Virus record (IMG/VR): IMGVR_UViG_3300045999_005873
Reading direction: 5' to 3' (one strand)
Origin: an uncultured virus (IMG/VR IMGVR_UViG_3300045999_005873)
Lineage: Duplodnaviria; Heunggongvirae; Uroviricota; Caudoviricetes
Length of the DNA stretch: 20,000 nucleotides
Part shown: positions 3,001-15,597 of the stretch, one piece after another
Position numbering within the stretch: the stretch's first letter is position 1
Layout of the letters: every line of letters starts with the position of its first letter
The notes under the pieces: model-generated
Database searches by the model: none
Seen by the model: only the letters and a program-made list of their open reading frames with translations
What the model was told of the DNA's origin: nothing
Translations under genes and position numbers: made by a program

Positions 3001-4985
3001 TGCAACTGCGCGTTGTAGCCCTGAAGGGCGCGCTGATCCAGGCCGAGGTTTACGCCAGTTGCGCCAGCGCCACCGAACGACTGCGAGAAGTTCATCGCCT
3101 GGGCGGCGCGGGTTGCTTCTTGCGTCATGTGGACGAGGCGTTGACGAGCGGCCTCGATCTCGGCGGGGAGGGCTGCGGGGGCAGCGGAGAGCCTAATGAA
3201 CTCAGCCTCGGCCTCGCGGATGGCCGGCACGAAGCGGGCGCGGAGAGGTTCCGGCAGCGTGTCAATCTGACTCTTCAGCGAGGTGATGCTGCCAGCGAGC
3301 GTGGCGAGCTGACGGCGTGGCAGCTCAAGGTCGTCGCCCATAGCTTGGCGAGCAAGTTGCCGCCTGCGATCCTCGAGGCTGGACATCCGACCCATGTCGG
3401 AGATGTCTGTCCTCTCGCCCTGGCCTACCAGGCTCGTGCGAGCGCCGAAGCTGCCGAAGTTCCTGTCCAGCGGAGACGACCGGCCCATGCCGGAGATGTC
3501 TGTCCTCGCGCCCATAGCACCAAGGCTCGTGCGAGCGCCAATGTTTTCCGCGTTCCTGTCCATCGGCGATGAGTCGCCGATTCTGTCCGCGTTCCTGTCG
3601 GGGGCGGCGGCGGCGTAGATGCCGTCGAACTCGCGACCTAGCGCGGCCATCCTTGCCTGCAAACTCTCAAGCTGCCTCTCGGCAGAGCCCGTCGGGAGCC
3701 CGCTGGCAATCTTCGCTTGCAGCCTTGCGTAGGCCGCCGTAGCATCGTTCGACCTTGACTTATATTCCTCAAGGATTGCGGCGATTCGCGGGTTTGCTTG
3801 AATCGTTGAGGCAGGCAGGCCAGCAGCCTTGTTGCCCATTTCGACGCCGCGGTCAAGCGATGACGCAAGCGCCGGCCTTGCGAAAAGCAGCTCCTGCCCG
3901 GTCTTCATGTTGCCGATCTTGCTTGACGCCTCGGCAAGGCGGGCAACCGCGGCGGCGGCGGCGCTGGCGCGTTTCTCGACAACGTCGAATTGCTGCGCGA
4001 TCGCCGACGCAGGGAGCACGCCCTTCTCGATGTTCGATTTGAGCGATTCGATCTGCGACTGAGATCGCTTCATCGCCGGCAAGAAGCCGGCCTGAATCTC
4101 TGCCGACATCGCCGCCAGCTTCTGCGTGGCCTCGCCGAACGGCTTGTTGATCTGCTCCGCGACAGAGCGAATCCTCTGTGTTTGCGTGACGGCTTCTTTT
4201 ATTGCCGCCTCGCCCAGGACATCCAATATGACAGGAAGCCGGACGGCCTCTGCCCGCTCGCCCGCCTGAAGAATCCTGTCAACGTCGGCGTCCTTCTGAA
4301 CATTAACGCCAATAGTCGCCTTGATCGTCTGGCGGCCGACTTCCTGAAGCCGCGTCACCTCGGCAGTCGCCTCGCGGTACTGGGCGGCGAGCGCGCTGAC
4401 TCCTCCGGCTGGCGAGCTGCCGCCAATCTTTACGGAAGCAACCTCTGCCTTTAGTTCCGCGACTCGCGACTTCGCCTCTGCCAGCCTTCGCCCTAGACCT
4501 GAGTCGACGAGGTTGACGGCGAAGTCGACTCTCTTCTCAGAAGAAAGCGCCCGCAGCTCGCGAACTTTCTCGATGCCGCCGACTCTGGCGACGATGTCGA
4601 GGTCTTTCGCCCGCAGCCCGACCAGAGCCTCTCTTAGTTCCGTGACGTTCTTCATCCCGCTGGCCCGTACTGCCACCGAGACCTGCGAGTCCCTCATTGA
4701 GGTCAGTCGCTGCCGAAGGACATCAACATCTTTGATGGCACCGGCAAAGCCCTTGAACGACAGCTTCATCGACGAAGCAGCCTGGAGCGACCGCTCAAAC
4801 TTCTGGAGAGGCGTGTAGATGCCCTCGAACGACCTTGCCGCCTCTCTTGAGGCCGAAGTCAGGTTGCTCTGAACGCTCCTGGCGAACGCCTGAACATCCT
4901 TCGCAGAGGCGTTCAGCTTGCTCTGAAAGTCGGCCGTATTCGCCGAAACAACTGCACTGATTTTGCCGAGGTAGCCGTTTGCCAT
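1..4985 (-). CDS. Tail tape measure protein (3' end outside the window)
   Basis: Not in the ORF track. My manual translation from ATG at 4985 (MANGYLGKISAVVSANTADFQSKLNASAKDV...) finds no stop before position 1, giving >1660 aa. It is Ala/Glu/Arg-rich and helical, has a TMP-like N-terminus and a hydrophobic stretch (MAFVLGGTTGLFVGLGAVIAGQAAIGLIKW, ~2550-2640), and follows the tail chaperones. AAGGA lies upstream of the start. Confidence 0.88.
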   Translation of the reverse strand, partial: MANGYLGKISAVVSANTADFQSKLNASAKDVQAFARSVQSNLTSASREAARSFEGIYTPLQKFERSLQAASSMKLSFKGFAGAIKDVDVLRQRLTSMRDSQVSVAVRASGMKNVTELREALVGLRAKDLDIVARVGGIEKVRELRALSSEKRVDFAVNLVDSGLGRRLAEAKSRVAELKAEVASVKIGGSSPAGGVSALAAQYREATAEVTRLQEVGRQTIKATIGVNVQKDADVDRILQAGERAEAVRLPVILDVLGEAAIKEAVTQTQRIRSVAEQINKPFGEATQKLAAMSAEIQAGFLPAMKRSQSQIESLKSNIEKGVLPASAIAQQFDVVEKRASAAAAAVARLAEASSKIGNMKTGQELLFARPALASSLDRGVEMGNKAAGLPASTIQANPRIAAILEEYKSRSNDATAAYARLQAKIASGLPTGSAERQLESLQARMAALGREFDGIYAAAAPDRNADRIGDSSPMDRNAENIGARTSLGAMGARTDISGMGRSSPLDRNFGSFGARTSLVGQGERTDISDMGRMSSLEDRRRQLARQAMGDDLELPRRQLATLAGSITSLKSQIDTLPEPLRARFVPAIREAEAEFIRLSAAPAALPAEIEAARQRLVHMTQEATRAAQAMNFSQSFGGAGATGVNLGLDQRALQGYNAQLQILQGAIGRASAEARGPAIEAFNRLRNAVASAFDEGNIDSAENRRRLAEVRAEAIAAAAAVSGISVGRLTRDVSRAGDVGRQGFDRFSLALNQAAFAVDDFMSSTGGLEFKLRAVSNNITQMAFVLGGTTGLFVGLGAVIAGQAAIGLIKWANSGRSAEDQAKALNESLARQKSLVDDLAQSHKALADAILRGTASSSSEQARSIAFGRSAMRRQSAELAAERRDGTDSAAVAPMPISQMIRELYSPRERRNEFQGMAELRAEINKLQKQLEAATTVGEGATIQGRIRDTNRALFATRGRLASEVTPDANVVASSIRGSANESDRVNNDRFLGNNTQRMFSNIVTLGASALLGVNRARSVQANASNEGLRDLASQVPTSVQGQIQALRRAQEMKRPEQSQRDLGFIKTGAALAADREIAQFEALIKSLQKVVESGVVDSASKAYAASVDAADSIRAAQEDVADAIRRGVPSAIAFQSELDALSSELAAADDALRSAVSTSPDDANITPEARTAAIERAQERVNGVLRQRADVESRAREMRLGRTFGGERTTKALSSLEGNDRFANEQAGLIANLKRVIDDEAEARRKAVQAVARETALVDLIAKKREEAASAGGDIGKRKIAEADIKAAEADLEKAKAAREAASAASDLAQKASETAAALAEATAGIEAALTRIRKVGESALQRSEQGADAAQRAFEENPLRAGAREARDAAEERLINDRATVGNAQADLGNRRREIQQDPQMQAINGELEAITQRRKDLEAKSAVGGGLNQAESAELDAAAKREIELLRQREMMARQLTEAERKQLDAINNGILAREKELEKGRQRAAEDPTFKRSIDAANQIMADSERQANEAQQRYINNPTEKNRKERDEADARLRSDRQRAQELQDNLDNKRKEIEKDPAVAANNKAIAANDKRLADLAEKEAKGGLTDLEIEERKRIQGENRRMRGENEGAIDAGTRDERKSIDDEQYARNQRDRALRGRDLGMTDRERFRKEFT
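3391..3600 (-). repeat. In-frame 93-bp (31-aa) tandem duplication plus a partial third copy inside the tape measure gene
   Basis: cccatg-n-cggagatgtctgtcctc occurs at 3391 and 3484. The translated units are SSPMDRNAENIGARTSLGAMGARTDISGMGR and SSPLDRNFGSFGARTSLVGQGERTDISDMGR. ccgcgttcctgtc recurs at 3548 and 3587. Confidence 0.85.
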
Positions 4986-4989
4986 CGAT

Positions 4990-5313
4990 TCATCCTTGAA
5001 TTGGCGTACTCAGCTTCATCAACTCAGACATGATCTGCGACTTCGACTGCTCTGGCTTGACCACGCTCGGGATGAACGCTGACTCGTCGGGGAGGTCGTG
5101 CTTCTTGTAGTTTCCCGACGAGGCCATGATCACCCTGCACAGTCTGGCCGTCTGACCCCAGGGGTCAGGAAGCGGCCATCTCTGATCAAACGCATACCAC
5201 TCGGCGATCTCCTTGCTGTCGACTTCCGCCAGCAGACGCTTCACGCTCATGCCCAGCGTTGCCGCTAGGCGGAAGTAGAAGCGCCTTTCTGGCCGGACGG
5301 CGAATCTTCCCCC
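4990..5313 (-). CDS. Tail assembly chaperone C-terminal (gpT-like) frame, probably reached by -1 frameshift
   Basis: The 86-aa ORF (ATG 5250) extends upstream without a stop as GRFAVRPERRFYFRLAATLG-MSVKRLLAEVDSKEIAEWYAF. This is in the -1 frame of the upstream chaperone and lies directly before the tape measure gene. Confidence 0.72.
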   Translation of the reverse strand, partial: GGRFAVRPERRFYFRLAATLGMSVKRLLAEVDSKEIAEWYAFDQRWPLPDPWGQTARLCRVIMASSGNYKKHDLPDESAFIPSVVKPEQSKSQIMSELMKLSTPIQG

Positions 5314-5636
5314 AAGGCATCCACTGCCTCCTGCGTGAAGGCATTGAGCTTCCAGCCGGCCTCGAACAGGCGGTTGATTACCACCGAAGACTTCTTGCCG
5401 AGGATGTCGGCCTCATCGTCGCTGAACAACCGCTTGCCGTCGTCATCGCACAAGGCAAGCAGGAGGAAGCGGATACGAAACGCCTTCATCTTCTGGTCGG
5501 CGTAGGACTCCTCGAAACGATCGCGGTCGGTGCCAGTGAGGACACGAAGAAACACGTCGCCCTTCCACTCGGGAACGGCAAACTTCTCCTTGCGAACGTC
5601 GTCGACTGCCAGGATGCTTTTACGATCAAGTGCCAT
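5265..5636 (-). CDS. Tail assembly chaperone (gpG-like), 123 aa
   Basis: MALDRKSILAVDDVRKEKFAVPEWKGDVFLRVLTGTDRDRFE...LALCDDDGKRLF is a typical chaperone sequence. GGAG upstream favours ATG 5636 over 5672. It lies between tail tube and tape measure genes. Confidence 0.8.
   Translation of the reverse strand: MALDRKSILAVDDVRKEKFAVPEWKGDVFLRVLTGTDRDRFEESYADQKMKAFRIRFLLLALCDDDGKRLFSDDEADILGKKSSVVINRLFEAGWKLNAFTQEAVDALGEDSPSGQKGASTSA
5307..5313 (-). other. Candidate -1 programmed frameshift site G GGG GAA
   Basis: The minus strand reads TTG GGG GAA GAT near the end of the gpG-like ORF. A -1 shift enters the gpT-like frame (GGA AGA TTC GCC...). Confidence 0.6.
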
Positions 5637-5680
5637 ATCAATCTGCTCCAGAAAGTGCTTGCTGTGCGGCATCCTGCCGG

Positions 5681-6046
5681 CTATGTGCCTTGATAATCAG
5701 TCATCAGAAACTTGAACGACCCGCGAACCAGTTCGCCCGCCTGGGCGCTCACTGACGCGGACTCGCAGACCACGCGGCGGATAATGGTGTATCCAGCCGA
5801 GGAGAACTTGAGATCGCCGACCTTCCTGACGAACAACTGGGGATCGGCGTTGGTGGTCAAGAAGTCCACAGTTATGGTGCCGCCGGCCCATTCGCCGGTC
5901 GGCACCATGAACGTGTATCCAAGACTGTCCGTCGCGGCGGTCATGTTCGTGACCTCCGCCGAAGGCATCTCCACCGAGATGCCCGTCAGCTTGCCGACGA
6001 ACGTCAGGAAGGTAAACGTCGCGCCATGTGCGGTGGCCCCGGCCAT
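5681..6046 (-). CDS. Tail tube-like protein B (121 aa)
   Basis: Beta-rich and T/S/G-rich (GATFTF...GTITVDFL...SASVSAQAGELVRGSFKF), with a GGAGG SD. It lies just upstream of the chaperone and resembles its neighbour. Confidence 0.55.
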   Translation of the reverse strand: MAGATAHGATFTFLTFVGKLTGISVEMPSAEVTNMTAATDSLGYTFMVPTGEWAGGTITVDFLTTNADPQLFVRKVGDLKFSSAGYTIIRRVVCESASVSAQAGELVRGSFKFLMTDYQGT

Positions 6047-6066
6047 GTCGGGTCACCTCCAGGCGG

Positions 6067-6402
6067 TTAGGCCACCCGCCAAGTCGCATTGCCCTTGAGG
6101 AGATCGCCGACGGTGCCGCCAACGGTCGAGGCCGTGAGGGTGGCGTTGCCGGAGAAGCTGAGACCGCCGGGGCCGGTGATGCTGAGAGCAGCCGACTGAA
6201 CCGTAATGACGGTCGACGCGATGTAGTCGCAGGAGACTTCACGCTGCACGAACGTCGGGACGTACTCGCGGCGGCTGCCCACGGCCTGACCGAGGTGCGA
6301 ACCGTCGGCGTTGTCGATCTGGTCGTTGACATTGAAGCTCGTGATCGTCAGGGTCTGACCAGAGTAGTTCATGGTCACGCCCATCGCTGCAACACCGGCC
6401 AT
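6067..6402 (-). CDS. Tail tube-like protein A (111 aa), probable major tail protein
   Basis: Follows the tail terminator, has a strong AAGGAGG SD and a beta-rich sequence ending ASTVGGTVGDLLKGNATWRVA. Confidence 0.6.
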   Translation of the reverse strand: MAGVAAMGVTMNYSGQTLTITSFNVNDQIDNADGSHLGQAVGSRREYVPTFVQREVSCDYIASTVITVQSAALSITGPGGLSFSGNATLTASTVGGTVGDLLKGNATWRVA

Positions 6403-6426
6403 AGTGCGCCTCCTTGCGCTAAAGTC

Positions 6427-6852
6427 TTATTCAGTGGCTTCCGACCACCGAATCTGAAATAGTTGTCGAACCTCGTAGGCTGGCGGGAGCTGGGCTCCCA
6501 CGGCGGCTGGGTCTAGATAGTCATCCGTCTCCGACACGAGCCGTATATCACTAATTGTAACGCCCGAGAGGGTGCCGGTGCGGCCATCCAAAGCGATCCG
6601 CACCTCGTCGGCAAGCTCGCGGGCAGTGTCGTAATAGAGTGCCCAGGAGGCGATCTGGAGGTGAACAATCGGCTGGAACATCGGCCCCGCAAGATGGGCT
6701 TCGCGGGTGATGTTGTTCCGCTTGTAGACGCAGAACGGCAGAACGGCGTTCTTCGGCACCGCGATCGGGTAGACCTGAAAGCCGACCAGCCTCGCCACCG
6801 CCGGGGTGGTGGCGAGCCTCTGGAAAACGTGTTTTTCTGGCGAAATGATCAT
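6427..6852 (-). CDS. Tail terminator/completion protein (DUF3168, gp17-like), 141 aa
   Basis: The true start is MIISPEKHVFQRL at 6852, with an ATGA overlap on the upstream gene. Motifs VYPIAVP..LPFCVY and LQIASWA..Y..ARELADEVRIALDG are present. Confidence 0.78.
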   Translation of the reverse strand: MIISPEKHVFQRLATTPAVARLVGFQVYPIAVPKNAVLPFCVYKRNNITREAHLAGPMFQPIVHLQIASWALYYDTARELADEVRIALDGRTGTLSGVTISDIRLVSETDDYLDPAAVGAQLPPAYEVRQLFQIRWSEATE

Positions 6853-7586
6853 TGCGTCAGCCTCGCCAGCGTGTTTTCGATGGCGGCCTTGAGCGTGTTG
6901 AATACTGCCCCCTGCTGCTCGTCGATGGTCTGCTGCATCGCGTGCTTTGCCGGCATGGGGGCATAGTCTTCGCCAGGGTGTAGCGTGACGGGGTGCATCT
7001 TGCCGCCGGAGTAGCCGAAGTCGTGCGGGTAGCCCTTGCCCATGCCGGCCTGCCGAGTGGCCTCGTTGATGCTGCCCATCAGGAAGTAGTAGCCCTTCGA
7101 CATATTGGCAAACTGCTGGTTGTTCGCCGACGAATGACGCCGCATCTTCCCGTTGATCATCTGGTGGACGTTGAGGTACGTCCGCCGCCCCTTCGTCCCA
7201 GGCTTGCGGCGGTCGGTGCCGAATTCGACGAGCCACGCATGATTCCCCGATTCTGCCCCCTCGCGACTGCCGGCGGTGCCTGACTGCCACGGGCCGACAA
7301 TCGCGACGGCGGCTGCGTCGTAGGTTTTCGTCTTGATCCTTACCGACTTTTTGAGGTTGCCCGTGGCGTTGCCGACTTTGGCCCGGTATCCGCGCCGAAT
7401 GTGTTCGGCGGCCTTCTTGGTCGCGTCCTCGAGCGCCTTCGGCTCGCCCATCTTGATGGCGATGGCCTGCAACTGCTCCGCCAACTCGCGGACGCCAGCC
7501 GTTTTGACCGTGACGAAGCCCTCGGCGAGCGACTTGCCGGTGCTGCCGCCGAAATCTCGCGGCGATCCCTGGCCTTGCGTAATCAT
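6849..7586 (-). CDS. HK97 gp10-like neck/tail-completion protein
   Basis: Motifs GVRELAEQL, TGNLKKSV, HAWLVEFGT and MPAKHAMQQT. Located between the head closure and terminator genes, with ATGA overlaps at both ends. Confidence 0.75.
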   Translation of the reverse strand: MITQGQGSPRDFGGSTGKSLAEGFVTVKTAGVRELAEQLQAIAIKMGEPKALEDATKKAAEHIRRGYRAKVGNATGNLKKSVRIKTKTYDAAAVAIVGPWQSGTAGSREGAESGNHAWLVEFGTDRRKPGTKGRRTYLNVHQMINGKMRRHSSANNQQFANMSKGYYFLMGSINEATRQAGMGKGYPHDFGYSGGKMHPVTLHPGEDYAPMPAKHAMQQTIDEQQGAVFNTLKAAIENTLARLTQ

Positions 7587-7903
7587 GTCGCTTCCTCCCT
7601 CGCCAGTATCTCATGGATCGAGCGGGTCTCTCGCTCAAGCACGCTGGAAATCTCCATCACGCGGCCACGCCAGAGGAGGCGGTGCTGGTGCGTGATGCCA
7701 GGGAAGAATCGGATGCGAATGCGATGCGTGACCAGCGCGCCTGCCTGCTGGGCAGCGAAGTAGTCACTGGCCCTGACGCCCATGATGCTGGCGTAAACCG
7801 TGGCCTCGTCCTCCCAGGTCAACGTCGTCTCGCCGAACGAGCTTTGGCTCTCGACCGGCTTCTGGATCGTCACCCTCTCCCGCATGGTGCCGGAGTTGAT
7901 CAT
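7583..7903 (-). CDS. Head-tail adaptor / head closure protein (SPP1 gp16-like)
   Basis: MINSGTMRERVTIQKP...W...VYASI...THRIRIRF.PGIT..HRLLW.GRVMEI.SV is the family pattern. Confidence 0.88.
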   Translation of the reverse strand: MINSGTMRERVTIQKPVESQSSFGETTLTWEDEATVYASIMGVRASDYFAAQQAGALVTHRIRIRFFPGITHQHRLLWRGRVMEISSVLERETRSIHEILAREEAT

Positions 7904-7906
7904 GGA

Positions 7907-8236
7907 TCACCCCATCCAGAGTGCGGTGTAGGTGCCTGATCCCGAGGGGGCCGAGACCGTGATCGTCGCCGTCACGGGCAGGACGGCCAGCCGGCCTGCT
8001 GAGACGTTGATGCTGCCAGCCAGTCGCAGGGCGCTCGAGCCCGTGTTCTTGACCACCAGCGTCGACAGGGGCGTGGCACCGACGATCTGCACCGCCGCCG
8101 TGCCGACGCTCCCGCTGATCGTCTGGGCCGTTGTCAGGGCCGGCGAAAGGTGCTCCGCCAAGTTGCCAATCGTCAGCGACGAGTCGCTTACGTCGTGGTA
8201 GACGGCGTCAACGTCGATTCGGGCTCGCACAGTCAT
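7907..8236 (-). CDS. Hypothetical beta-rich virion protein, 109 aa
   Basis: Start MTVRARIDVDAVYHD at 8236 has an ATGA overlap with the upstream stop. It is T/S/V/G-rich and fills the gap in the operon. Confidence 0.65.
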   Translation of the reverse strand: MTVRARIDVDAVYHDVSDSSLTIGNLAEHLSPALTTAQTISGSVGTAAVQIVGATPLSTLVVKNTGSSALRLAGSINVSAGRLAVLPVTATITVSAPSGSGTYTALWMG

Positions 8237-8871
8237 CGGTAGACCCCCATGCTGGCCGCAGCCAGAAGCGTGTCGAACGTCTGCGGCACCGACTGCGGAG
8301 CCCCGGTGACGGCCGGCTGTCTCGTGTCGTACCAGTGGGCCGTCAAAAGAAGAATCAGGTGCTTCACGATGGGGGGCGCTGCCTGCCCGTCGTCGCCGTA
8401 GCCCGCCGAGTACCGCACCGTCACCGAATTCTCGTCGCCGCGGGTCGCCGGCCAGGAGCGAGCCCACTGCGGGTAGATGCGGCCTGGGATCACGCTGGCA
8501 TCGACCTGAAAGTCGGTGGCGCTCGAGAGCTGGCTATAGGTGCCGTCGCCGCTGCGGTAAGTCACCGTCACGGCACGATCCAGCATGGGCAGGCGGGGCA
8601 GGACGATCGCCCAGACGGGGAACAGGTCATACTTGACCTCCCAGACCGTCGAGCAGATCGTGATGTCCAGCACATCCTCAACGTACTGCCTCGCCACCGA
8701 GATCAACGACTGGATGTAGAGATCGTCCGCATCCGTATCGACGCGGCAGTGCTGCTTGGCGAACGCCAGACTGACCGGCTCCACGGCCGGCGGTGTGATG
8801 CGAACTAGGCTGCGAAACGGCGTGATCGACGCTGTCGGCTTCTGCGGCGTACCGAAGACAATCGTGTCCAT
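8233..8871 (-). CDS. Head-tail connector protein (gp6 / phiE125 gp8-like)
   Basis: PPAVEPVSLAFAKQHCRVD...DDLYIQSLISVARQYVE...VTVRYSAGYG...P..VKHLILLLTAHWYDTR. Confidence 0.9.
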   Translation of the reverse strand: MDTIVFGTPQKPTASITPFRSLVRITPPAVEPVSLAFAKQHCRVDTDADDLYIQSLISVARQYVEDVLDITICSTVWEVKYDLFPVWAIVLPRLPMLDRAVTVTYRSGDGTYSQLSSATDFQVDASVIPGRIYPQWARSWPATRGDENSVTVRYSAGYGDDGQAAPPIVKHLILLLTAHWYDTRQPAVTGAPQSVPQTFDTLLAAASMGVYR

Positions 8872-9063
8872 CTATCGCCTCTTTTTTGGTACTTGCTTCG
8901 TCGTTACTTCGGCTCGCTCGACGGCCACTGGAACGGCCTCGGCCGTCTCCACCTCTTCGATCAGCCCACGGCGGATGAGGATGTCGCACATCCCACCAGC
9001 CCAGTCCTCGAAGACTTGGCCTTTTTCGTAGCAGTCAAAGTTTTGGAGGACGCGAATCTTCAA
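8872..9063 (-). CDS. Small hypothetical head-associated protein (~63 aa)
   Basis: Probable TTG start overlapping the upstream TGA (TTGA). (M)KIRVLQNFDCYEKGQVFED...LIRRGLIEEV with a basic tail resembles the short proteins often found between capsid and connector genes. Confidence 0.6.
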   Translation of the reverse strand: MKIRVLQNFDCYEKGQVFEDWAGGMCDILIRRGLIEEVETAEAVPVAVERAEVTTKQVPKKRR

Positions 9064-9788
9064 TGAACCTGCCCCCAGGCGTTCTCTGGTGCCTTCTGGC
9101 CGCCGTTCCAATACTCAGTCGTGTGCTGCTGCACCTTGCCGCCCTCGGCCGTCCGAGAGGGCCATGTGACCATCAGTTCGGCGTGCCCGACGCTGACGTG
9201 CGTTGCCAGCCCGAGCTTGTTGCCGCAGGCGGCCCAGCCCTTCCAGAAGCCGATGTCTTCGTCAGTGTGCCCGCCCGTCCACTCGCCATCATCATTCGCC
9301 CTGGCGAGGAACCAGGGCTTCTTCATCTTCTTGAGGCCAGCCGTCCGCAGGAACGTCAGTCCGAAGTGAGCCGTCTCGACCGGCTGCACCACCTTCTGAA
9401 AGAAGTCGCCGTCCACCGTTGTCTTCTCGTCTGGACTGTTCCCCGGCAGGGCGAACATCACCGCATTCGCTTCCCGCTTGGTCTGGAGAGGAGCGATGGC
9501 GTCGTAGCCCGAGTGCAGGAGCAGGGCCAGGAGCGCCTCGACAGTCTTCGAGTTGAAGACCGTGTCGTAGTCGATGGTCAGGATCACGTCGTGGGTATCC
9601 ACGACAGTCTCCATCGCTCGCTGAAGGCACTGGCCCCAGAAAGCACCCGTCACCTTGATGGGACTGATGCCATGCGGGGCCAGTGCCGACGAGACGCAGA
9701 AGAAATTGTCGGTAAATCCAAGTCGCGGGGTGCTCATCACCGCCGCGACTTTGATTTCCGCTTCGACGTTACCGACTCGGATCAGCAT
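9060..9788 (-). CDS. Glycosyltransferase-like protein (GT-A/GT2-like fold)
   Basis: DXD motif after a beta strand (DVILTIDYD), HFGLTFLR, KPWF, DEDIGFW (ED motif) and a late VGH. AAGGAG SD upstream. Confidence 0.65.
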   Translation of the reverse strand: MLIRVGNVEAEIKVAAVMSTPRLGFTDNFFCVSSALAPHGISPIKVTGAFWGQCLQRAMETVVDTHDVILTIDYDTVFNSKTVEALLALLLHSGYDAIAPLQTKREANAVMFALPGNSPDEKTTVDGDFFQKVVQPVETAHFGLTFLRTAGLKKMKKPWFLARANDDGEWTGGHTDEDIGFWKGWAACGNKLGLATHVSVGHAELMVTWPSRTAEGGKVQQHTTEYWNGGQKAPENAWGQVH

Positions 9789-9864
9789 GGATCGCTCCTT
9801 GTATGGAGCGGGCGCGCATCCATGCGCCTTTGTCGGCCATCATGGCCGTCCCGCAGTTCGGGAA
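9789..9864 (-). promoter_or_regulatory. Structured intergenic leader of four tandem hairpins, one with a GGA loop and one sequestering the SD
   Basis: On the mRNA: UCCCG-aacug-CGGGA, CGGCCA-uga-UGGCCG, GCGCA-ugga-UGCGC, CGCUCC-auacaa-GGAGCG, then AUCC AUG. Confidence 0.6.
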
Positions 9865-10287
9865 TCAGCCCTTGACCCAGCCGATGCAGCCAGCTTCAGT
9901 AGCAGTCGTCGGGGCATCGCCACGAGACAGCCGAGCCGTCACCACCGTGTTCACGCTGACCGCGGGGGTCGCCGTGACCTTGAGGTAACGCTTCTTCGCC
10001 TTCGTGTCGACATCCAGCTTCACCACCGCGACGGCCGCCGTGTCGGACACGACGGGGATCGTGAAGTCGGTGCCGCCCAAGAGGCCGGTCACGTTCGAGT
10101 AGGACGAGTTGTCGTCCGACTCTTCAACCTTCAGGACGCTGGCAAACACCGTCGAGGCGTTGCTGGCCCGCATCACGGTCACGCTCGCGTGGTCATAGCC
10201 GAGCGTGTCGATCGTCAGGGTCACGGCACTCGAGCCGACCGAAGCCGGGACGGAGGCCACAACCTTTTCATTCTGGGCGTGGATCAT
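9865..10287 (-). CDS. Putative capsid decoration/cement protein (140 aa)
   Basis: Immediately after the major capsid gene. Beta-rich, with IDTLGYD, LKVEESDD and KKRYLKV motifs typical of small jelly-roll-like capsid accessory proteins. Confidence 0.55.
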   Translation of the reverse strand: MIHAQNEKVVASVPASVGSSAVTLTIDTLGYDHASVTVMRASNASTVFASVLKVEESDDNSSYSNVTGLLGGTDFTIPVVSDTAAVAVVKLDVDTKAKKRYLKVTATPAVSVNTVVTARLSRGDAPTTATEAGCIGWVKG

Positions 10288-10327
10288 GGTCTAGGGGTTC
10301 CTTTCCTTGAGGTTTTGGTTGTTAGGC

Positions 10328-11680
10328 TCAGGACGCCGCGGTCTTGAGGGCCACCACCGGGCCGGCGGTCGTGTTGTCGCCCAGCGAGTGGTGGTTAATG
10401 TCGAAGCGAAGCGTTCCCTGGAGGAGCAACTGGTCGGTCGTGGCGTACACTTGGTCGTACATCTTGACCGAGAAGTCACGGCGACGAGCGTAGATGCTCG
10501 ACAGGCCGAGGTTCGCGAACAGCACCTTCACCTTGCCAGCGTCGGCACCGAGCGTGCCGTCCATGACGTGGACGAGGTTCACCGGGTAGCCGAGGAACTG
10601 CTCGTTCACGCCGCCACCGACCTGCTCGACGGTGTTGCCACCAGCCGCGTAGCGGAGGCGGGCCATCGAGGCAGCGAAACCGGCCGGCGAGATGTAGAAG
10701 GCTGCACCCTGGCGGGCGTACAGCGGCATCCGGCCGATCAGCTTGATGAAGTCGGTCACGGTCAGGGTCTCGAAGCCCGTCGCACCCGTGCCGGCAGTCA
10801 GCACGCCAGCGGTGTGAGTGCCGTCGTTGATCTTCGGCACCACGCCGTGGATTCCGCCGAAGCTGGAGGTGCCGTCACCCAACCAACCGCACATATCCTG
10901 CTTGAGCGACAGCGAGGTGCTGAACTCCACTGCCACAGCATCAGCAATCGAAACCAGAGCGTCCTCTACGATTTCGCTCGACATCCGAGTGCCAACCGCC
11001 AGCTTTTTGGCGATAAGCTGCACATTGGAATAAGTGGGCTCGCTCTCGTTTACCGCCGTCCCTTCGCCCACGAAGTACGCTGCGGTGCCCGTAACCCGCT
11101 TGGGGATCACGAGGGTGTCGCGGGTCATCGTGACCTTCTCGACGTTGCTCGCGGCGAAGGTGCCGTAGTTTTCGACGAGACGAATCACGCGGGCCGCAAA
11201 CTCTTCGGGCACTAGAGCGCCACCCGACGAGTTGCTGCTCTCGCCCAGGGCACGGCTCTCGACGCCGTGATCCTTGCACCACCGGAGGTCTTCGGCGTTC
11301 TTGAAGATATGGGCTCGGAGCCACCGACCGCAGCGGTACGCGCTCTCGACGGCCTCGGGGCCGTCGTTGAATGCCCGCAGGCTGGTGTGGTGGGGCTGGA
11401 TCGAACGAATCTCGACCTTCTTGTCCTCGGCCTTGGCGGCCACTTCGGCAACCGGGGCAGGGGCGGGGGCGGCCTTCTCGACCACCGCACGCAGCTCGGC
11501 TTCCTTGGCGGCGATCCGCTCCTCGAAGTCGAGGGAAGTCTTCAGGTCGTCGGCCTGGGTGCCGAGCGAGATGAGTTCCTTGGTCTGCTCGGCCGAGCGA
11601 TCCTCGATACCGGACAGTTCGGTCATCCGAGCGGCGACAGCCGCGGCACGTTCCTGAAGACGCTTGAGATTCGATGCCAT
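10328..11680 (-). CDS. Major capsid protein, HK97 fold with N-terminal coiled-coil delta domain (450 aa)
   Basis: Start MASNLKRLQERAAA at 11680 with an AGGAG SD. Motifs SSGGALVPEEF, AYFVGEG, KKLAVGTRMSSEIVED, GDGT, FLGYPV and RFD. Confidence 0.93.
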   Translation of the reverse strand: MASNLKRLQERAAAVAARMTELSGIEDRSAEQTKELISLGTQADDLKTSLDFEERIAAKEAELRAVVEKAAPAPAPVAEVAAKAEDKKVEIRSIQPHHTSLRAFNDGPEAVESAYRCGRWLRAHIFKNAEDLRWCKDHGVESRALGESSNSSGGALVPEEFAARVIRLVENYGTFAASNVEKVTMTRDTLVIPKRVTGTAAYFVGEGTAVNESEPTYSNVQLIAKKLAVGTRMSSEIVEDALVSIADAVAVEFSTSLSLKQDMCGWLGDGTSSFGGIHGVVPKINDGTHTAGVLTAGTGATGFETLTVTDFIKLIGRMPLYARQGAAFYISPAGFAASMARLRYAAGGNTVEQVGGGVNEQFLGYPVNLVHVMDGTLGADAGKVKVLFANLGLSSIYARRRDFSVKMYDQVYATTDQLLLQGTLRFDINHHSLGDNTTAGPVVALKTAAS

Positions 11681-11831
11681 GTTTGGCCTGCTCCTGTGAT
11701 TGAGCCGGCCTAACGCACGATGCGGCGGCCGGCGGGTGATCCCGCTAGCGCGCCGCGTGCTTGAATCCTCAAGACGCTCGCACTGCTCTTCACGACATCC
11801 GTCGTGAAGCAATGTGTCTACTTGTAGACTA
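11681..11831 (-). promoter_or_regulatory. Highly structured 151-nt capsid leader with GGA-loop hairpins
   Basis: On the mRNA: GUCUAC-aa-GUAGAC (11816-11829), CUUCACGAC-ggau-GUCGUGAAG (11788-11809), CUUGA-ggau-UCAAG (11760-11773), GCGGG-auca-CCCGC (11732-11745), GCCGGCC...GGCCGGC (11704-11733), then CACAGGAG SD. Confidence 0.65.
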
Positions 11832-13499
11832 TCAAGCCTTCGGAAGACCGTGCAACTGAGTCCGAAGGATTGTGGCCTTCAGAGCCGCCAGCTTCACGTC
11901 GATGTCCAACTGTTCCTTGGCCGCCCGCATGTCCTCGGCGACCTTCTCGTCGACAGGTTCCGGCTTCTTCTCTTCGCTCATACGCTCCTCGGGGATGATC
12001 CACAGTTTGCACACGGCATCGGCAGCGATCTCGCCCTGCACGATGTAGCACCTGCCTTCCTCGCCCTCGAAGAAGACGCAGTTGCCGCACTTCACGCCGT
12101 CCTTGGCGAAGGGGTTTTCGGTCATGTAGTGAGCGTCGTTCTGCGAGAACGCGCCGAATTCCTCGGCGATGCCCTCATACGACTCGGCCAGGGCGAGGTT
12201 CGCGGGCGAGAGCACGGATTCGTACTCTTCCTCGATCTCCTCGCCTTCGACGATGTCTCGCTTTCCAGCGGCACGCTCCATCTGTGAGACCTTGGCCTCA
12301 CTCCACCGCCACGCCGGGTCGCCGCCCCAGAGCATCCAGGCGGTATAGCCGGGGGTCTCAGCGCCTTTCGCGCTCCAGCCGGCCTTCTTGTCGACCTTGT
12401 GACGCCGAAACCACGCCCGCATCTCGCGAACGTGCTCGGGCGTGAGTTCGTCGCGGTCGGCGATCTTGCCGGCACGCGCCACCGTCTCGGGCTTGAGCCC
12501 GTCGCCCGATCGGCCTTCCTCGTGGAGGGCCAATCCTCGCTTCGCGGCGGCTGCCATGCCCGCGGTGGGCTTCAGATTCACGTCGGAGGCGGCCCGTTCC
12601 TCGGCAGGAGCGTCGGAAACAGGGATTTCAGTGGCAGAGTCCACCGACGGGGCTGCTTCCGGCTGCGCGGAAGCAGCACGCCGATCCACCCACTTCTGCC
12701 CTGCATCTCCGCCGGCCAGTTGCCACTCGATCCAGGCCGGCGTGCCCGACCAGCCCGTCACTTTCGCCGCCAAGCAGCGTTCGTAGACTCCCGAGAGGTA
12801 CGAAACCTCCTCGACGGAGACGATTTCGCGGTTTGCGACACGTTCGGCGATGCACAGGAGGCGAGAATCGATGTTTTCTGCCTTCTGGGCGAGCTTCAGA
12901 CCGCGTTTCGCCGCGTTCGCCATCGTTTGGATGGGCCGATGGCTCTCGCCGAGGGCCATTTCGATGGCTCGACGGCTCACCACCACGCTGGACGAGTCAT
13001 ATGCAGGGCGAACCACTGGCCCAACGTCCTCGAGCAGCCCGATCGCACGCACTTCTCGCTTCCGAATGCCACGAGTATTGTCCGTAGACCACGAATCGCC
13101 ATTATCCCGACGGATTGCGAAGGCGAAACTTGACCCCACGACTGTCCTATCCTTCACCCATTCGATCACGTCGCGGCCGATGGACGTGTTTTCGTTCGGC
13201 GTGATCTCGTAACGAAGACCATAGGGGTCTTTCGTGAGCTTCATCGACCCGTTTCCGGTGCGGCCGAGGAGCAGATTGCGGTCGTGATTGAACACGCCGA
13301 TGACATCGGGGTTCTCGGCCAGCACTTCGTCGAACGCATTCGGGTGAATCGTCTCGACGAAGCCGCCCAGGTTGCGGCTCTCAGCGTTGAAGACGGCGGC
13401 GTAGCCCGAAATCACAGGCTTCTTCTCGCCGTTTCCCATGTCTCGGTACTCAATCGTCGCGTCCGAGACCGTCGTGCGCCGTTCAATTTCATTGCTCAT
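11832..13499 (-). CDS. Prohead maturation protease (HK97 family) with long multi-domain C-terminal extension
   Basis: The N-terminal ~180 aa contain ISGYAAVFN, GGFVETI, FNHDRNLLLGRT, GSSFAF and EDVGPVVRPAY. These are followed by two copies of an ~90-aa domain, a 4-Cys domain and a helical tail. Confidence 0.9.
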   Translation of the reverse strand: MSNEIERRTTVSDATIEYRDMGNGEKKPVISGYAAVFNAESRNLGGFVETIHPNAFDEVLAENPDVIGVFNHDRNLLLGRTGNGSMKLTKDPYGLRYEITPNENTSIGRDVIEWVKDRTVVGSSFAFAIRRDNGDSWSTDNTRGIRKREVRAIGLLEDVGPVVRPAYDSSSVVVSRRAIEMALGESHRPIQTMANAAKRGLKLAQKAENIDSRLLCIAERVANREIVSVEEVSYLSGVYERCLAAKVTGWSGTPAWIEWQLAGGDAGQKWVDRRAASAQPEAAPSVDSATEIPVSDAPAEERAASDVNLKPTAGMAAAAKRGLALHEEGRSGDGLKPETVARAGKIADRDELTPEHVREMRAWFRRHKVDKKAGWSAKGAETPGYTAWMLWGGDPAWRWSEAKVSQMERAAGKRDIVEGEEIEEEYESVLSPANLALAESYEGIAEEFGAFSQNDAHYMTENPFAKDGVKCGNCVFFEGEEGRCYIVQGEIAADAVCKLWIIPEERMSEEKKPEPVDEKVAEDMRAAKEQLDIDVKLAALKATILRTQLHGLPKA

Positions 13500-13969
13500 G
13501 CCGTCACCTGATTCGCGAGGTAGTTGTCCACACCGATCTGTTCGATCACACGCTGTTTTGCTTCGATCGCGGCCACCGCTTCTTCGCTGCCTTCGAGCAA
13601 CCGGGTGAAGATGACGGCGGAAATCTCGTCGCCGACGGCACGGCAGGCCGTCACGTTGGCTCGCTCGGCCTCCGCAGCGGCGGTTTCAAGTGCCAAGTTG
13701 GCCGCGAGGATGCCCTCGAAGTCGTGGCGAGGCCAGTCGGGCTGGTCGTGATCGTAGGCCGGCTGCTCGTCGTAGTATTCGAGCCTCGCCTGCACCTTGT
13801 GCAGGTGGCGGCGCTCCTCTTCGACCTCGCCGCGGGCGGCGTCGGCCAGCTTCCCGTAACCCCATCGATCGAAGTGCTCGGCCTGCGACTGATACGTCTC
13901 AATCGCGGTCATGTGCAGCCGAACGGAGGCTTGCAGGGCGTCGATCACGCCTTCAGGTGCTTGCGGCAT
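13496..13969 (-). CDS. Bacterioferritin-like protein with degenerate ferroxidase and heme sites
   Basis: 157 aa. Aligns essentially colinearly with E. coli Bfr as I recall it: AIxxY, WG..KL, EEERRH, RL, NLALE, GDEIS and the C-terminal IEQIGVDNYLANQ E-helix. Confidence 0.82.
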   Translation of the reverse strand: MPQAPEGVIDALQASVRLHMTAIETYQSQAEHFDRWGYGKLADAARGEVEEERRHLHKVQARLEYYDEQPAYDHDQPDWPRHDFEGILAANLALETAAAEAERANVTACRAVGDEISAVIFTRLLEGSEEAVAAIEAKQRVIEQIGVDNYLANQVTA

Positions 13970-15596
13970 CGGTTGTCAGGTGCTTGTCGCACCAGCCTTC
14001 AGTGACGGTTTCGTACTTCTGACCGCTGCGATGACACTCAAGCAAGAGGTCTCGCGAGCGGTTCACCCAATCTGACACAAACTTGTCGATGTCTCGTCCA
14101 GCGGCCTCTGCGGCCTCGCGAAGCTCTTCTCGCATCCGCTGGCTCGTCTGATCGAACCACGTCGCGATCTTCTCCGGCTTGCTGCGGCGCTCGAGCACGC
14201 CGGCAGCCTCGACCGCGGCGAGTCGCCGAAGGTTCGTCTTGAACAGCACCTCGGCACCGGCGAGCTGTCGGGCGTCCTCGACGGTTGCGGGGGCGTCAGG
14301 GGCCGGCGGCTCGGGCGTGGCGTCTACGCCGGCCGGCGGAGTCGGCGATGACTCGGTCTGCTTCTGGCCGGTCGGGTTGTCGGGCGTGAAAGCCTCGAGC
14401 AATTGCATATTGACCTGAACGAATCGCTTCTTGCCCAGGTCATCAGGCAGCGGGTTGTAGCCGATCTGAGCGCGGATTTCGTCGATGTCCAGGGCACCAA
14501 GGTTCGCCATCTCACGCAGGAACTGCGAACGCGCCGCATAGTCGCCGACCATCAGGGCGTTCGTGTCGAACTGGCAGAAATACTGCTTGTCGTCGACTAC
14601 GAGATCGCGGCGGCACGCCATTTCCCATCGGCGGCACCACGGGATCAGGCTGAACGTGACGAAGTCGATGGCCGATTGTTCCACCGTCGAAAAACGCACA
14701 TTCGACAAGTCGCCGATCAAATGGCCTGGGACGCGATAGGCTCGGCTGACTTCCTCGCATTGGTAGCGGCGAGTCTCAATGAGCTGGGCCGTATCGTTCC
14801 GCACCTCGATCTGCTTGCGGTGAAATCCGAACGGCATGACGACGGTCTTGTAGCTCTTGTCTGGGCCGGAATGAGCGTCATTCCACTGCTCCTTGAACCG
14901 CGACAGCACCTCGGGCTTATGAGGCTGATCGGTTTCGATATAGGTGCCGGGTGTCGCGCCGTTCCCGAAGAATGCACCAGAGTGCAATTCGGTCGCTCGG
15001 GCCAGCCCGATGGCGTCTCGGGAGAGGGTCGTGGGAACGAAGCCGGTCACGCCGTCAGATGAGAGCCAGCGAAGATGAAAAATCTCGTCCTGCCGATACT
15101 CCGTCACATTCACCTGGGGCTGGATCGGCGTCGTCGGCTCGGTGTAGTAATACCGGAGCTTGCCGTTGGTGAGCCGCTTGACCTCCATCCGCGACGGATG
15201 CAAAGGGATCAGCTCGGTCACGCCGCCCTGACGGCCGCCCTTGATATGGGCGTAGGCGTTGCCCCAGAGGAGGAGCCAACTTTGCATCAGCTCCCTGAAC
15301 TCGAAGCCCGTCATCCATGAGTTGGGCTGATAGCAGATCACCTCGTGGAGGTGCTGCTCTTCGGCGATTTCCTTGCCGCCGCCGGGGAGCCTGCGGTAGA
15401 CGTTGAACGGGAGGCTGGCGATCGACTCGGACAGCACCCGCACGCAGGCGAGAACTGCCGTGCATTCTAGGGCCGTCTCTGGCGAGACCGTGACGCCGGA
15501 TGCCGTGCGTCGAGTATTGGAAATCTCCTCGAAAATACGGGAGAGATTGCCGCGAAGCTCAATCAGATCGGAGACTTCCTCGTCGATCTTGTCCAC
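13953..15596 (-). CDS. Portal protein, HK97 family, with C-terminal extension
   Basis: AVLACVRVLSESIASLP, PNSWMTGFEFRE, LLWGNAYA, LIPLHPSRM, IFHLR, FFGNGATPG, YRVPGHLIG and DEIRAQIGYNP. Follows the terminase gene. Confidence 0.95.
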   Translation of the reverse strand: MDKIDEEVSDLIELRGNLSRIFEEISNTRRTASGVTVSPETALECTAVLACVRVLSESIASLPFNVYRRLPGGGKEIAEEQHLHEVICYQPNSWMTGFEFRELMQSWLLLWGNAYAHIKGGRQGGVTELIPLHPSRMEVKRLTNGKLRYYYTEPTTPIQPQVNVTEYRQDEIFHLRWLSSDGVTGFVPTTLSRDAIGLARATELHSGAFFGNGATPGTYIETDQPHKPEVLSRFKEQWNDAHSGPDKSYKTVVMPFGFHRKQIEVRNDTAQLIETRRYQCEEVSRAYRVPGHLIGDLSNVRFSTVEQSAIDFVTFSLIPWCRRWEMACRRDLVVDDKQYFCQFDTNALMVGDYAARSQFLREMANLGALDIDEIRAQIGYNPLPDDLGKKRFVQVNMQLLEAFTPDNPTGQKQTESSPTPPAGVDATPEPPAPDAPATVEDARQLAGAEVLFKTNLRRLAAVEAAGVLERRSKPEKIATWFDQTSQRMREELREAAEAAGRDIDKFVSDWVNRSRDLLLECHRSGQKYETVTEGWCDKHLTTDAAST

Positions 15597-15597
15597 G

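Follow-up and report, generated by a model that had tools for sequence, protein, structure and literature searches.

What reads the small hairpins that stand ahead of the virion genes of an uncultured tailed phage? The phage is represented here by the IMG/VR record IMGVR_UViG_3300045999_005873 (Caudoviricetes), of which a stretch of 20,000 nucleotides was analyzed (hereafter the window), and the hairpins in question carry the triplet GGA in their loops. A preliminary description of the window took them as the marks of a translational regulon of the CsrA/RsmA type, run by a host or a phage protein. CsrA, RsmA, and RsmE repress bacterial mRNAs through their leaders, for example, glgC and cstA in Escherichia coli and hcnA, with RsmE, in Pseudomonas fluorescens (PDB 2jpp). 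The consensus obtained for CsrA by systematic evolution of ligands by exponential enrichment is RUACARGGAUGU, and CsrA targets have two or more sites, one of them over the Shine-Dalgarno (SD) sequence, about 10-63 nt apart for one dimer. We consider that the hairpins are probably operators of a phage-encoded CsrA that controls the late mRNAs of the phage itself. A search for csrA, a shuffle test, and the covariation seen across relatives all lend support to the regulon interpretation.

The genes of the window are all encoded on the minus strand, to which the window coordinates below refer, and together they form a tailed-phage morphogenesis module. The seven hairpins listed in the preliminary description are all present on this strand, and the four that it had set apart from the SD (5667, 9814, 11760, and 11788) are indeed separate from it. 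Its further remark that some genes of the module start without such a hairpin was borne out for the large terminase, portal, ferritin-like, and protease genes, for which hairpins of at least four Watson-Crick pairs showed no GGA loop directly upstream; these genes abut or overlap their upstream neighbors. Of the 316 GGA triplets on the mRNA strand, 34 occupy the loop of a hairpin with four or more Watson-Crick pairs. The 373 nt of intergenic sequence hold five such cases among 13 triplets versus 29 among 303 elsewhere (Fisher p = 0.007), and with stems of at least 5 bp the figures are 4/13 and 11/303 (p = 0.002). When the six intergenic segments that are 20 nt or longer were dinucleotide-shuffled 5000 times, the two stem classes averaged 0.49 and 0.12 hairpins, against the five and four observed, and these counts were reached by one shuffle and by none, respectively. 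Because the shuffles so rarely reach the observed counts, the hairpin pattern exceeds chance. A scan against Rfam 15 at E ≤ 1 returned three matches (E 0.13-0.87), all under the gathering score and none in the leaders. As a pattern that might define the regulon, GCA(N)GGANGC was rejected, being common within coding sequence on both strands.

Comparison with relatives separates the seven hairpins into two groups. Five of them, namely two in the capsid leader and one each ahead of the glycosyltransferase-like (GT-like), tail-tube, and chaperone genes, are conserved RNA elements; those at the decoration and tape-measure genes, which the preliminary description had counted among them, are ribosome-binding sites only. 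The nearest relative, G001, is a 74,090-bp viral contig rated complete and is 95.7% identical to the window over 4875-16998. A search with the capsid protein found 210 viral relatives, of which the best 80 loci (69-100% identity) were kept, and 78 of these 80 have at least 230 nt upstream and were used for the leader comparison. A second search, with a 69%-identical member as the query, found 354 relatives and added 69 loci, 61 with enough upstream sequence. A clade of more than 100 sampled phages is available for comparison in this way.

The capsid leader reaches from the protease stop to the capsid AUG at 11680 (11681-11831) and, over its roughly 150 nt, is strikingly conserved across relatives. 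Coding is excluded, because among the 54 distinct leaders aligned there are indels whose length is not divisible by three. A structure of four elements, P1 to P4, with an inner hairpin (P4a) contained in P4, was written by hand and scored on these 54 leaders: 96.3% of cells are paired, and 15 of the 31 pairs show compensatory changes. None of 500 shuffles reached any of the measures, and slid controls were 36-45% paired. The minimum free energy (MFE) of the leader in the window is -80 kcal/mol (z = -6.2). Taken together, the comparative evidence identifies the capsid leader as a well-supported structured RNA that is matched by no Rfam family.

P1 (11788-11809) is a hairpin with a GGAU tetraloop whose GGA lies at 11800-11798. 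The preliminary description had recognized it with a shorter stem; in full the stem is 9 bp, CUUCACGAC-GGAU-GUCGUGAAG. The GGA is invariant in 78/78 loci and 54/54 distinct leaders, the fourth loop base is T in 33, A in 14, and C in seven of the distinct leaders but never G, and seven of the nine stem pairs show compensatory changes. RNAalifold recovers P1 independently, likewise with seven of nine pairs covarying, and in the wider clade a further 34 distinct leaders, read by eye, keep the P1 GGA on yet more stem variants. P2 (11755-11777, core 11773-11760) has the form GCG-N-CUUGA-GGAU-UCAAG-NN-CGC, with compensatory changes in three of its eight pairs. The covariation across relatives is thus favorable to the regulon interpretation, as the stems covary around loops in which the GGA does not change. 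P3 (GCGGG-loop-CCCGC) and P4/P4a (CGGCC...GGCCG around the inner hairpin) form a structured spacer (11706-11745) between P2 and the SD. P3 occurs as GCGAG/CUCGC in four sequences and as GCGGA/UCCGC in one, and P4 has the double change CAGCC/GGCUG in six. Unlike the GGA loops, those of P3 and P4a, which lack GGA, are free to change in both length and sequence; as a control within the same leader, they indicate that the GGA loops are under special constraint. P1 and P2 are 32 nt apart, P2 lies about 75 nt and P1 about 105 nt from the SD, and the supported structure apparently leaves the SD open. RNAalifold also proposed helices that sequester the SD and AUG, but these were rejected, as they lack compensatory support, unlike the competing P4, and no switch is claimed. 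In the MFE fold of the window sequence, P2 is replaced by pairing to codons 4-7.

The leader of the GT-like gene (9789-9864) was aligned over 45 distinct sequences. It consists of an outer GCGGG/CCCGC helix, within which a CGGCC-loop-GGCCG hairpin and the GGA hairpin are nested, followed by a conserved pairing of CGCUCC with the SD GGAGCG (CGCUCC-N6-GGAGCG). The GGA hairpin has the form GCGC-A-N-GGA-N-GCGC; in the window (9814-9827) an extra A-U pair closes it, leaving the loop UGGA. It stands upstream of the gene in 68/69 loci, and its columns over the 45 sequences read G44/A1 C45 G45 C45, A45, A23/T18/G4, G45 G45 A45, T30/A8/C4/G3, G45 C45 G45 C45. The GGA of the SD follows about 23 nt downstream. 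The GCAUGGAU segment of the hairpin is complementary to AUCCAUGC around the GT-like start codon (window 9783-9827), in AUG-start relatives as well; this pairing, which appears in the single-sequence MFE fold, was rejected as a conserved feature, as it is broken in GUG-start relatives.

At the tail-tube gene (6402-6067) the SD itself sits in the hexaloop of GCGC-AAGGAG-GCGC (6406-6419). This hairpin is found in 38/39 loci, down to 41% protein identity, with the compensatory variants GCGU..ACGC (locus L048) and CACGC..GCGUG (L076, L077, and L086). The chaperone gene (start 5636) is preceded by CGGCA-GGA-UGCCG (5667-5679). An upstream GGA-loop hairpin is present in 24/42 chaperone loci, with loops of GGA or AGGA, about 28 nt from the SD site; there is one compensatory variant, AGGCA..UGCCU (L047), and the hairpin is lost in distant relatives with short spacers. 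An AUG inside the hairpin (5679-5667) was rejected as a conserved start, as in one relative a stop separates it from the AUG at 5636. Two further candidates were rejected as independent elements. The tape-measure sequence AUUCA-AGGA-UGAAU (4988-5001) is the SD and overlaps the gpT-like gene at its final codons and stop; it forms a hairpin in 17/34 loci, and variants like CCGGGGUGA retain the SD only. The decoration sequence CCU-CAAGGAA-AGG (10300-10312) is a plain SD region with a 3-bp stem, and among 71 loci a GGA-loop hairpin occurs upstream in none and at the SD position in one.

If the hairpins belong to a CsrA regulon, which genome supplies the protein? As the preliminary description had noted, no csrA lies within the 20-kb window. 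The gene was therefore sought in the relatives, and G001 carries a PF02599 gene that scores 55 bits against a cut-off of 27. It is present in 9/9 relatives that are at least 90% complete and in 15 of 21 clade records examined; the six records lacking a match are 33-73% complete. Scores across 15 phage records and one contig of a metagenome-assembled genome (MAG) are 52-72 bits. In the relatives csrA is about 25-30 kb from the region that the window covers. It is a core gene of the clade, and we infer that the phage of the window carries it as well. The G001 protein has 62 aa, matches phrog_9500 ("CsrA-like regulator"), and aligns to E. coli CsrA (1y00, E = 4.8e-6), with LCLTRR against LILTRR and VKIVREE against VSVHREE; 2jpp and 1y00 both appear as matches to the phage CsrA. 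The LTRR and V-R-E-E segments, which we take from mutagenesis work to be the RNA-binding regions of CsrA, lie in these stretches, and seven phage copies are alike in the conserved segments.

The csrA gene has such a hairpin of its own. Its SD is enclosed in GGAA-AGGA-UUCC in six of seven csrA loci (G001 50870-50936, or L001 1420-1497, and the csrA loci of six relatives), and the seventh has a 3-bp version. An SD in a GGA-loop hairpin is as expected for autoregulation, and it suggests that csrA may regulate itself at this site. A TAGGCTACTG motif stands ahead of this ribosome-binding-site hairpin, and the hairpin follows the same motif, TAGGCTAC, that precedes the capsid leader. Around csrA (G001 49443-52586, L001), two paralogous open reading frames (ORFs) of 170-283 aa lie upstream, and the ORFs downstream resemble, by eye, what we take to be QueD- and QueE-type enzymes of 7-deazaguanine synthesis.

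At the 3' end of the protease gene, directly ahead of the capsid leader, lies a promoter-like block, TTGCAC-N18-TAGTCTAC (11824-11858), in which both hexamers are conserved and the 18-nt spacer is variable. The octamer TAG[G/T]CTAC occurs there (window 11831-11824) and in seven copies in G001, at 6932, 25247, 48736, 49964, and 50870 on the plus strand and 67591 and 67569 on the minus strand, where about three would be expected by chance (hand estimate). Each of the seven is directly upstream of an ORF in sense orientation, csrA among them, and the octamer is often extended to TAGGCTACTGRCCGAYAC. We take the octamer to be the probable -10 region of one class of phage promoters, common to csrA and the capsid gene. 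A simple sigma-70 scan did not call the block at the capsid gene, and from its conservation we infer the capsid promoter and the 5' end of the capsid mRNA. In G001 another hairpin, CGGA-AUGGAG-UCCG (48756-48769, plus strand), presents an SD in a hexaloop; the TAGGCTAC motif directly precedes this hairpin and an AUG follows after 8 nt, so that the putative regulon may reach beyond virion genes.

How might the phage CsrA act on these leaders? A dimer would recognize GGA displayed in hairpin loops. The loop contexts were compared by eye with the consensus forms A(N)GGA(N) and CA-GGA-UG: they are A-N-GGA-N at the GT-like gene, AAGGAG at the tail tube, GCA-GGA-UGC at the chaperone, AC-GGAU-GU in P1, and GA-GGAU-UC in P2. 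At the GT-like, chaperone, and tail-tube genes the site lies on the SD or some 23-28 nt upstream of it, the classical arrangement in which ribosome binding would be blocked, and repression or control of stoichiometry is therefore likely there. The GT-like and chaperone leaders would each offer a pair of sites within reach of one dimer and the tail tube a single SD site. In the capsid leader, both GGA hairpins are near the inferred 5' end, and CsrA might act there through mRNA stability; alternatively, the folded P3/P4 spacer might bring P2 close to the SD.

These leaders share several features with bacterial CsrA leaders. In both, GGA is in the loop of a short hairpin, with hexaloops of the A-N-GGA-N type at the GT-like and tail-tube genes and the contexts GCA-GGA-UGC at the chaperone and AC-GGAUGU in P1; an upstream site would be combined with an SD site at the GT-like and chaperone genes, the tail tube having the SD site only; and, in the relatives, a CsrA-family protein with conserved RNA-binding segments is encoded in the same genomes. 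Unlike in bacterial systems, the phage would supply both the regulator and its targets, these targets belong to the virion module, the likely host family lacks a Csr system, and no sponge RNA was identified here; the capsid sites are also far upstream of the SD in a folded 150-nt leader. For the latter there is a bacterial parallel, flhDC, in which CsrA binds the 5' end of the leader, blocks RNase E, and stabilizes the mRNA, which leads to activation. The two GGA sites of the capsid leader are likewise near the 5' end, here an inferred one, and far from the SD. Among phages, T4 RegA and the MS2 coat protein with its hairpin are classical translational repressors with RNA operators, and the proposed circuit would resemble them in that short RNA operators at start sites let a phage protein tune how phage genes are translated; the proteins and operators are unrelated.

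Several observations weigh against this reading. The GT-like stem virtually never varies, so that it shows conservation without covariation. The P2 GGA is kept in 69/78 loci; in the other nine a short hairpin whose loop lacks GGA takes the place of P2. The P1 loop, a tight GGAN tetraloop closed by 9 bp, is stiffer than the penta- and hexaloops of well-studied CsrA sites, and at about 105 nt from the SD P1 leaves the capsid case unexplained by simple ribosome occlusion. Three metatranscriptome runs contributed nothing beyond read-sized contigs within the capsid and decoration-position genes, at a depth of 2-3, which yield no 5' ends and are indistinguishable from DNA carry-over. The co-occurrence of csrA and hairpins, described below, is one contrast between two clades and not many independent ones, and the host assignment rests on one metagenome bin with a contig that is possibly wholly phage. 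Published proposals for phage CsrA, in the text accessible to us, name host targets such as CRISPR-Cas (PMC8450108).

The rival that survives best holds that the hairpins are RNA elements independent of CsrA, such as 5' stabilizers, RNase processing sites, ribosome standby or SD-presenting structures, or sites of another protein, while the phage CsrA acts on host mRNAs. We consider this a serious possibility, though an unlikely one. The leaders are far more than GGA hairpins, as P3, P4, and the SD hairpin are conserved too; an SD shown in a loop, as at the tail tube, could aid ribosome access alone; and host targets are what the accessible literature proposes for phage CsrA (PMC8450108, PMC11879866). 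A sister clade whose capsid shares 41% identity with that of the window bears on both sides of the question. Its capsid leader is conserved and structured but different, which means that structure itself needs no CsrA. An upstream GGA-loop hairpin is found there in only 2/75 loci, and csrA in 0/5 long contigs, three of them 97-100% complete. The sister clade is a natural control, lacking both csrA and the GGA hairpins, which is the direction predicted if the two belong together. The CsrA-independent explanation leaves this confinement of the hairpins to the csrA-carrying clade unaccounted for, although the point is not decisive, and it offers no reason for GGA to be fixed in loops whose neighboring bases and stems are free. 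Nor is the base after GGA in P1 and P2 ever G, which speaks, again not decisively, against the selection of a longer duplex with the tail of the 16S rRNA. A sphingomonad host, moreover, would have mRNAs with no history of CsrA control. As a separate observation, the sister-clade leader (loci L171-L250, some 120 nt ahead of the capsid start) reads ..CUGCAUGGGUG..UAGGCGAUGCGUCCGCGUCGCC..CACUAGGAGAU..GUG and is apparently an unrelated structured RNA.

It is improbable, in our judgment, that a host-encoded CsrA reads the hairpins instead of the phage protein. The preliminary description had allowed for a host protein, and phage and host CsrA tend to co-occur according to the accessible text of Campa et al. 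(PMC8450108). A close capsid (80% identity) was found in just one cellular record, a contig of 50.8 kb placed in the bin of a Chakrabartia (Sphingomonadaceae) MAG. The single CsrA match of this MAG is on contig 18, which we take to be that capsid contig (ctg18 in its title) and which is phage-like, and PF02599 was found in 0/60 other genomes of the family. If the bin is right, the only CsrA of the infected cell might be that of the phage, and only through this host assignment is a phage-encoded regulator weakly favored over a host one. A sister-clade relative in a MAG (L096) belongs to a Planctomycetota bin with four CsrA matches, yet the sister clade is without the GGA hairpins. As for chance palindromes around ribosome-binding sites in a GC-rich genome, of which the decoration and tape-measure sites are exact instances and which many GGA-loop hairpins inside coding sequence genome-wide might recall, they are a most implausible explanation, already refuted for the five conserved sites by the shuffle and Fisher tests and by covariation around an invariant GGA across more than 100 relatives.

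Operators of a phage-encoded CsrA on the phage's own mRNAs would add to what has been reported for phage csrA. In the text available from the following sources, phage csrA homologues are documented by Campa et al. 2021 (PMC8450108) and by Sobrero and Valverde 2020 (PMC7366521), and some csrA-bearing phages infect hosts without a chromosomal csrA (PMC7366521). Phage PTXU04 encodes a CsrA homologue, gp28 (PMC11879866). One knockdown of a phage csrA resulted in small plaques, and according to the authors the role in the phage life cycle "has not been previously tested" (PMC11879866). In the Burkholderia phage CSP3, the csrA gene orf23 adjoins the capsid gene (PMC10269572). The present case resembles these, as far as the available text describes them, in having a small csrA gene on a tailed phage; it differs in that those papers suggest that the host is manipulated or leave the role open, and none reports conserved binding-site hairpins such as those that stand here on the leaders of the phage's own virion genes. 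Full-text searches of the literature, subscription journals excluded, found no account of CsrA-type operators on phage virion-gene leaders. The capsid, tail-tube, chaperone, and GT-like mRNAs would thus be candidate conserved targets on the phage itself for a protein whose role, in the accessible text of earlier work, is unknown or host manipulation (PMC8450108, PMC11879866). With the csrA-less sister clade as a natural control, these candidate targets make the role of phage csrA experimentally addressable. We go further only at even chances: the phage may carry a self-contained Csr circuit in a host lineage without a Csr system, with CsrA as a dedicated regulator of virion proteins and the capsid leader as a new class of cis-regulatory RNA. 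Taken together with similar cases in other phages, such a circuit would provide a general function for phage csrA genes that have long been unexplained.

The runs that contain the stretch almost all carry a lake-water metagenome label. Along the module, in order, are an HNH protein (19920-18664), the small terminase (18736-18170 as listed, its start not fixed), the large terminase (18177-15598), which is interrupted by an intein-like LAGLIDADG/Hom_end insert, the portal (15596-13953), a ferritin-like protein (13969-13496; PF00210, E = 2.7e-13), an S78 prohead protease that has a long extension at its C terminus (13499-11832), the HK97-type capsid protein (AUG 11680, end 10328), the decoration-position gene (10287-9865), and the GT-like gene (9788-9060, 242 aa). 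Connector, head-completion, gp10-like, and gp17-like proteins follow between the GT-like gene and two small proteins at the tail-tube position (6402-6067 and 6046-5681), which are named by gene position only; the first of these has no family match in Pfam or PHROG, and its tube label comes from position alone. Next are the tail assembly chaperone (phrog_344, E = 6.7e-27), a gpT-like protein between the chaperone and the tape measure, and the tape measure from 4985. The GT-like protein has no Pfam or PHROG match; its neighbors in a protein atlas include Glycos_transf_2 clusters, which is a lead only.

In G001, at about 72090-72400 (L006 12090-12400), there are four copies of CGAGCGUGGGAACG, three extended by CGAC, each of which would form a GCGU-GGGA-ACGC hairpin on the minus strand. 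They adjoin about five tandem copies of a unit of about 38 nt, directly downstream of a small plus-strand gene, and might serve as replication iterons or, read from the minus strand, as a decoy RNA with multiple GGA. Within the window, the ferritin-like gene is an unusual passenger of a head module, placed between the portal and prohead-protease genes. The S78 domain of the protease covers only residues 20-180 of 555 aa, and the long C-terminal part may be a fused scaffold. The large terminase has 859 aa, with LAGLIDADG_3 and Hom_end at residues 275-339, between its start and the ATPase domain; G001 has no alignment to window 16999-17800, and the terminase insert is probably absent or different there.

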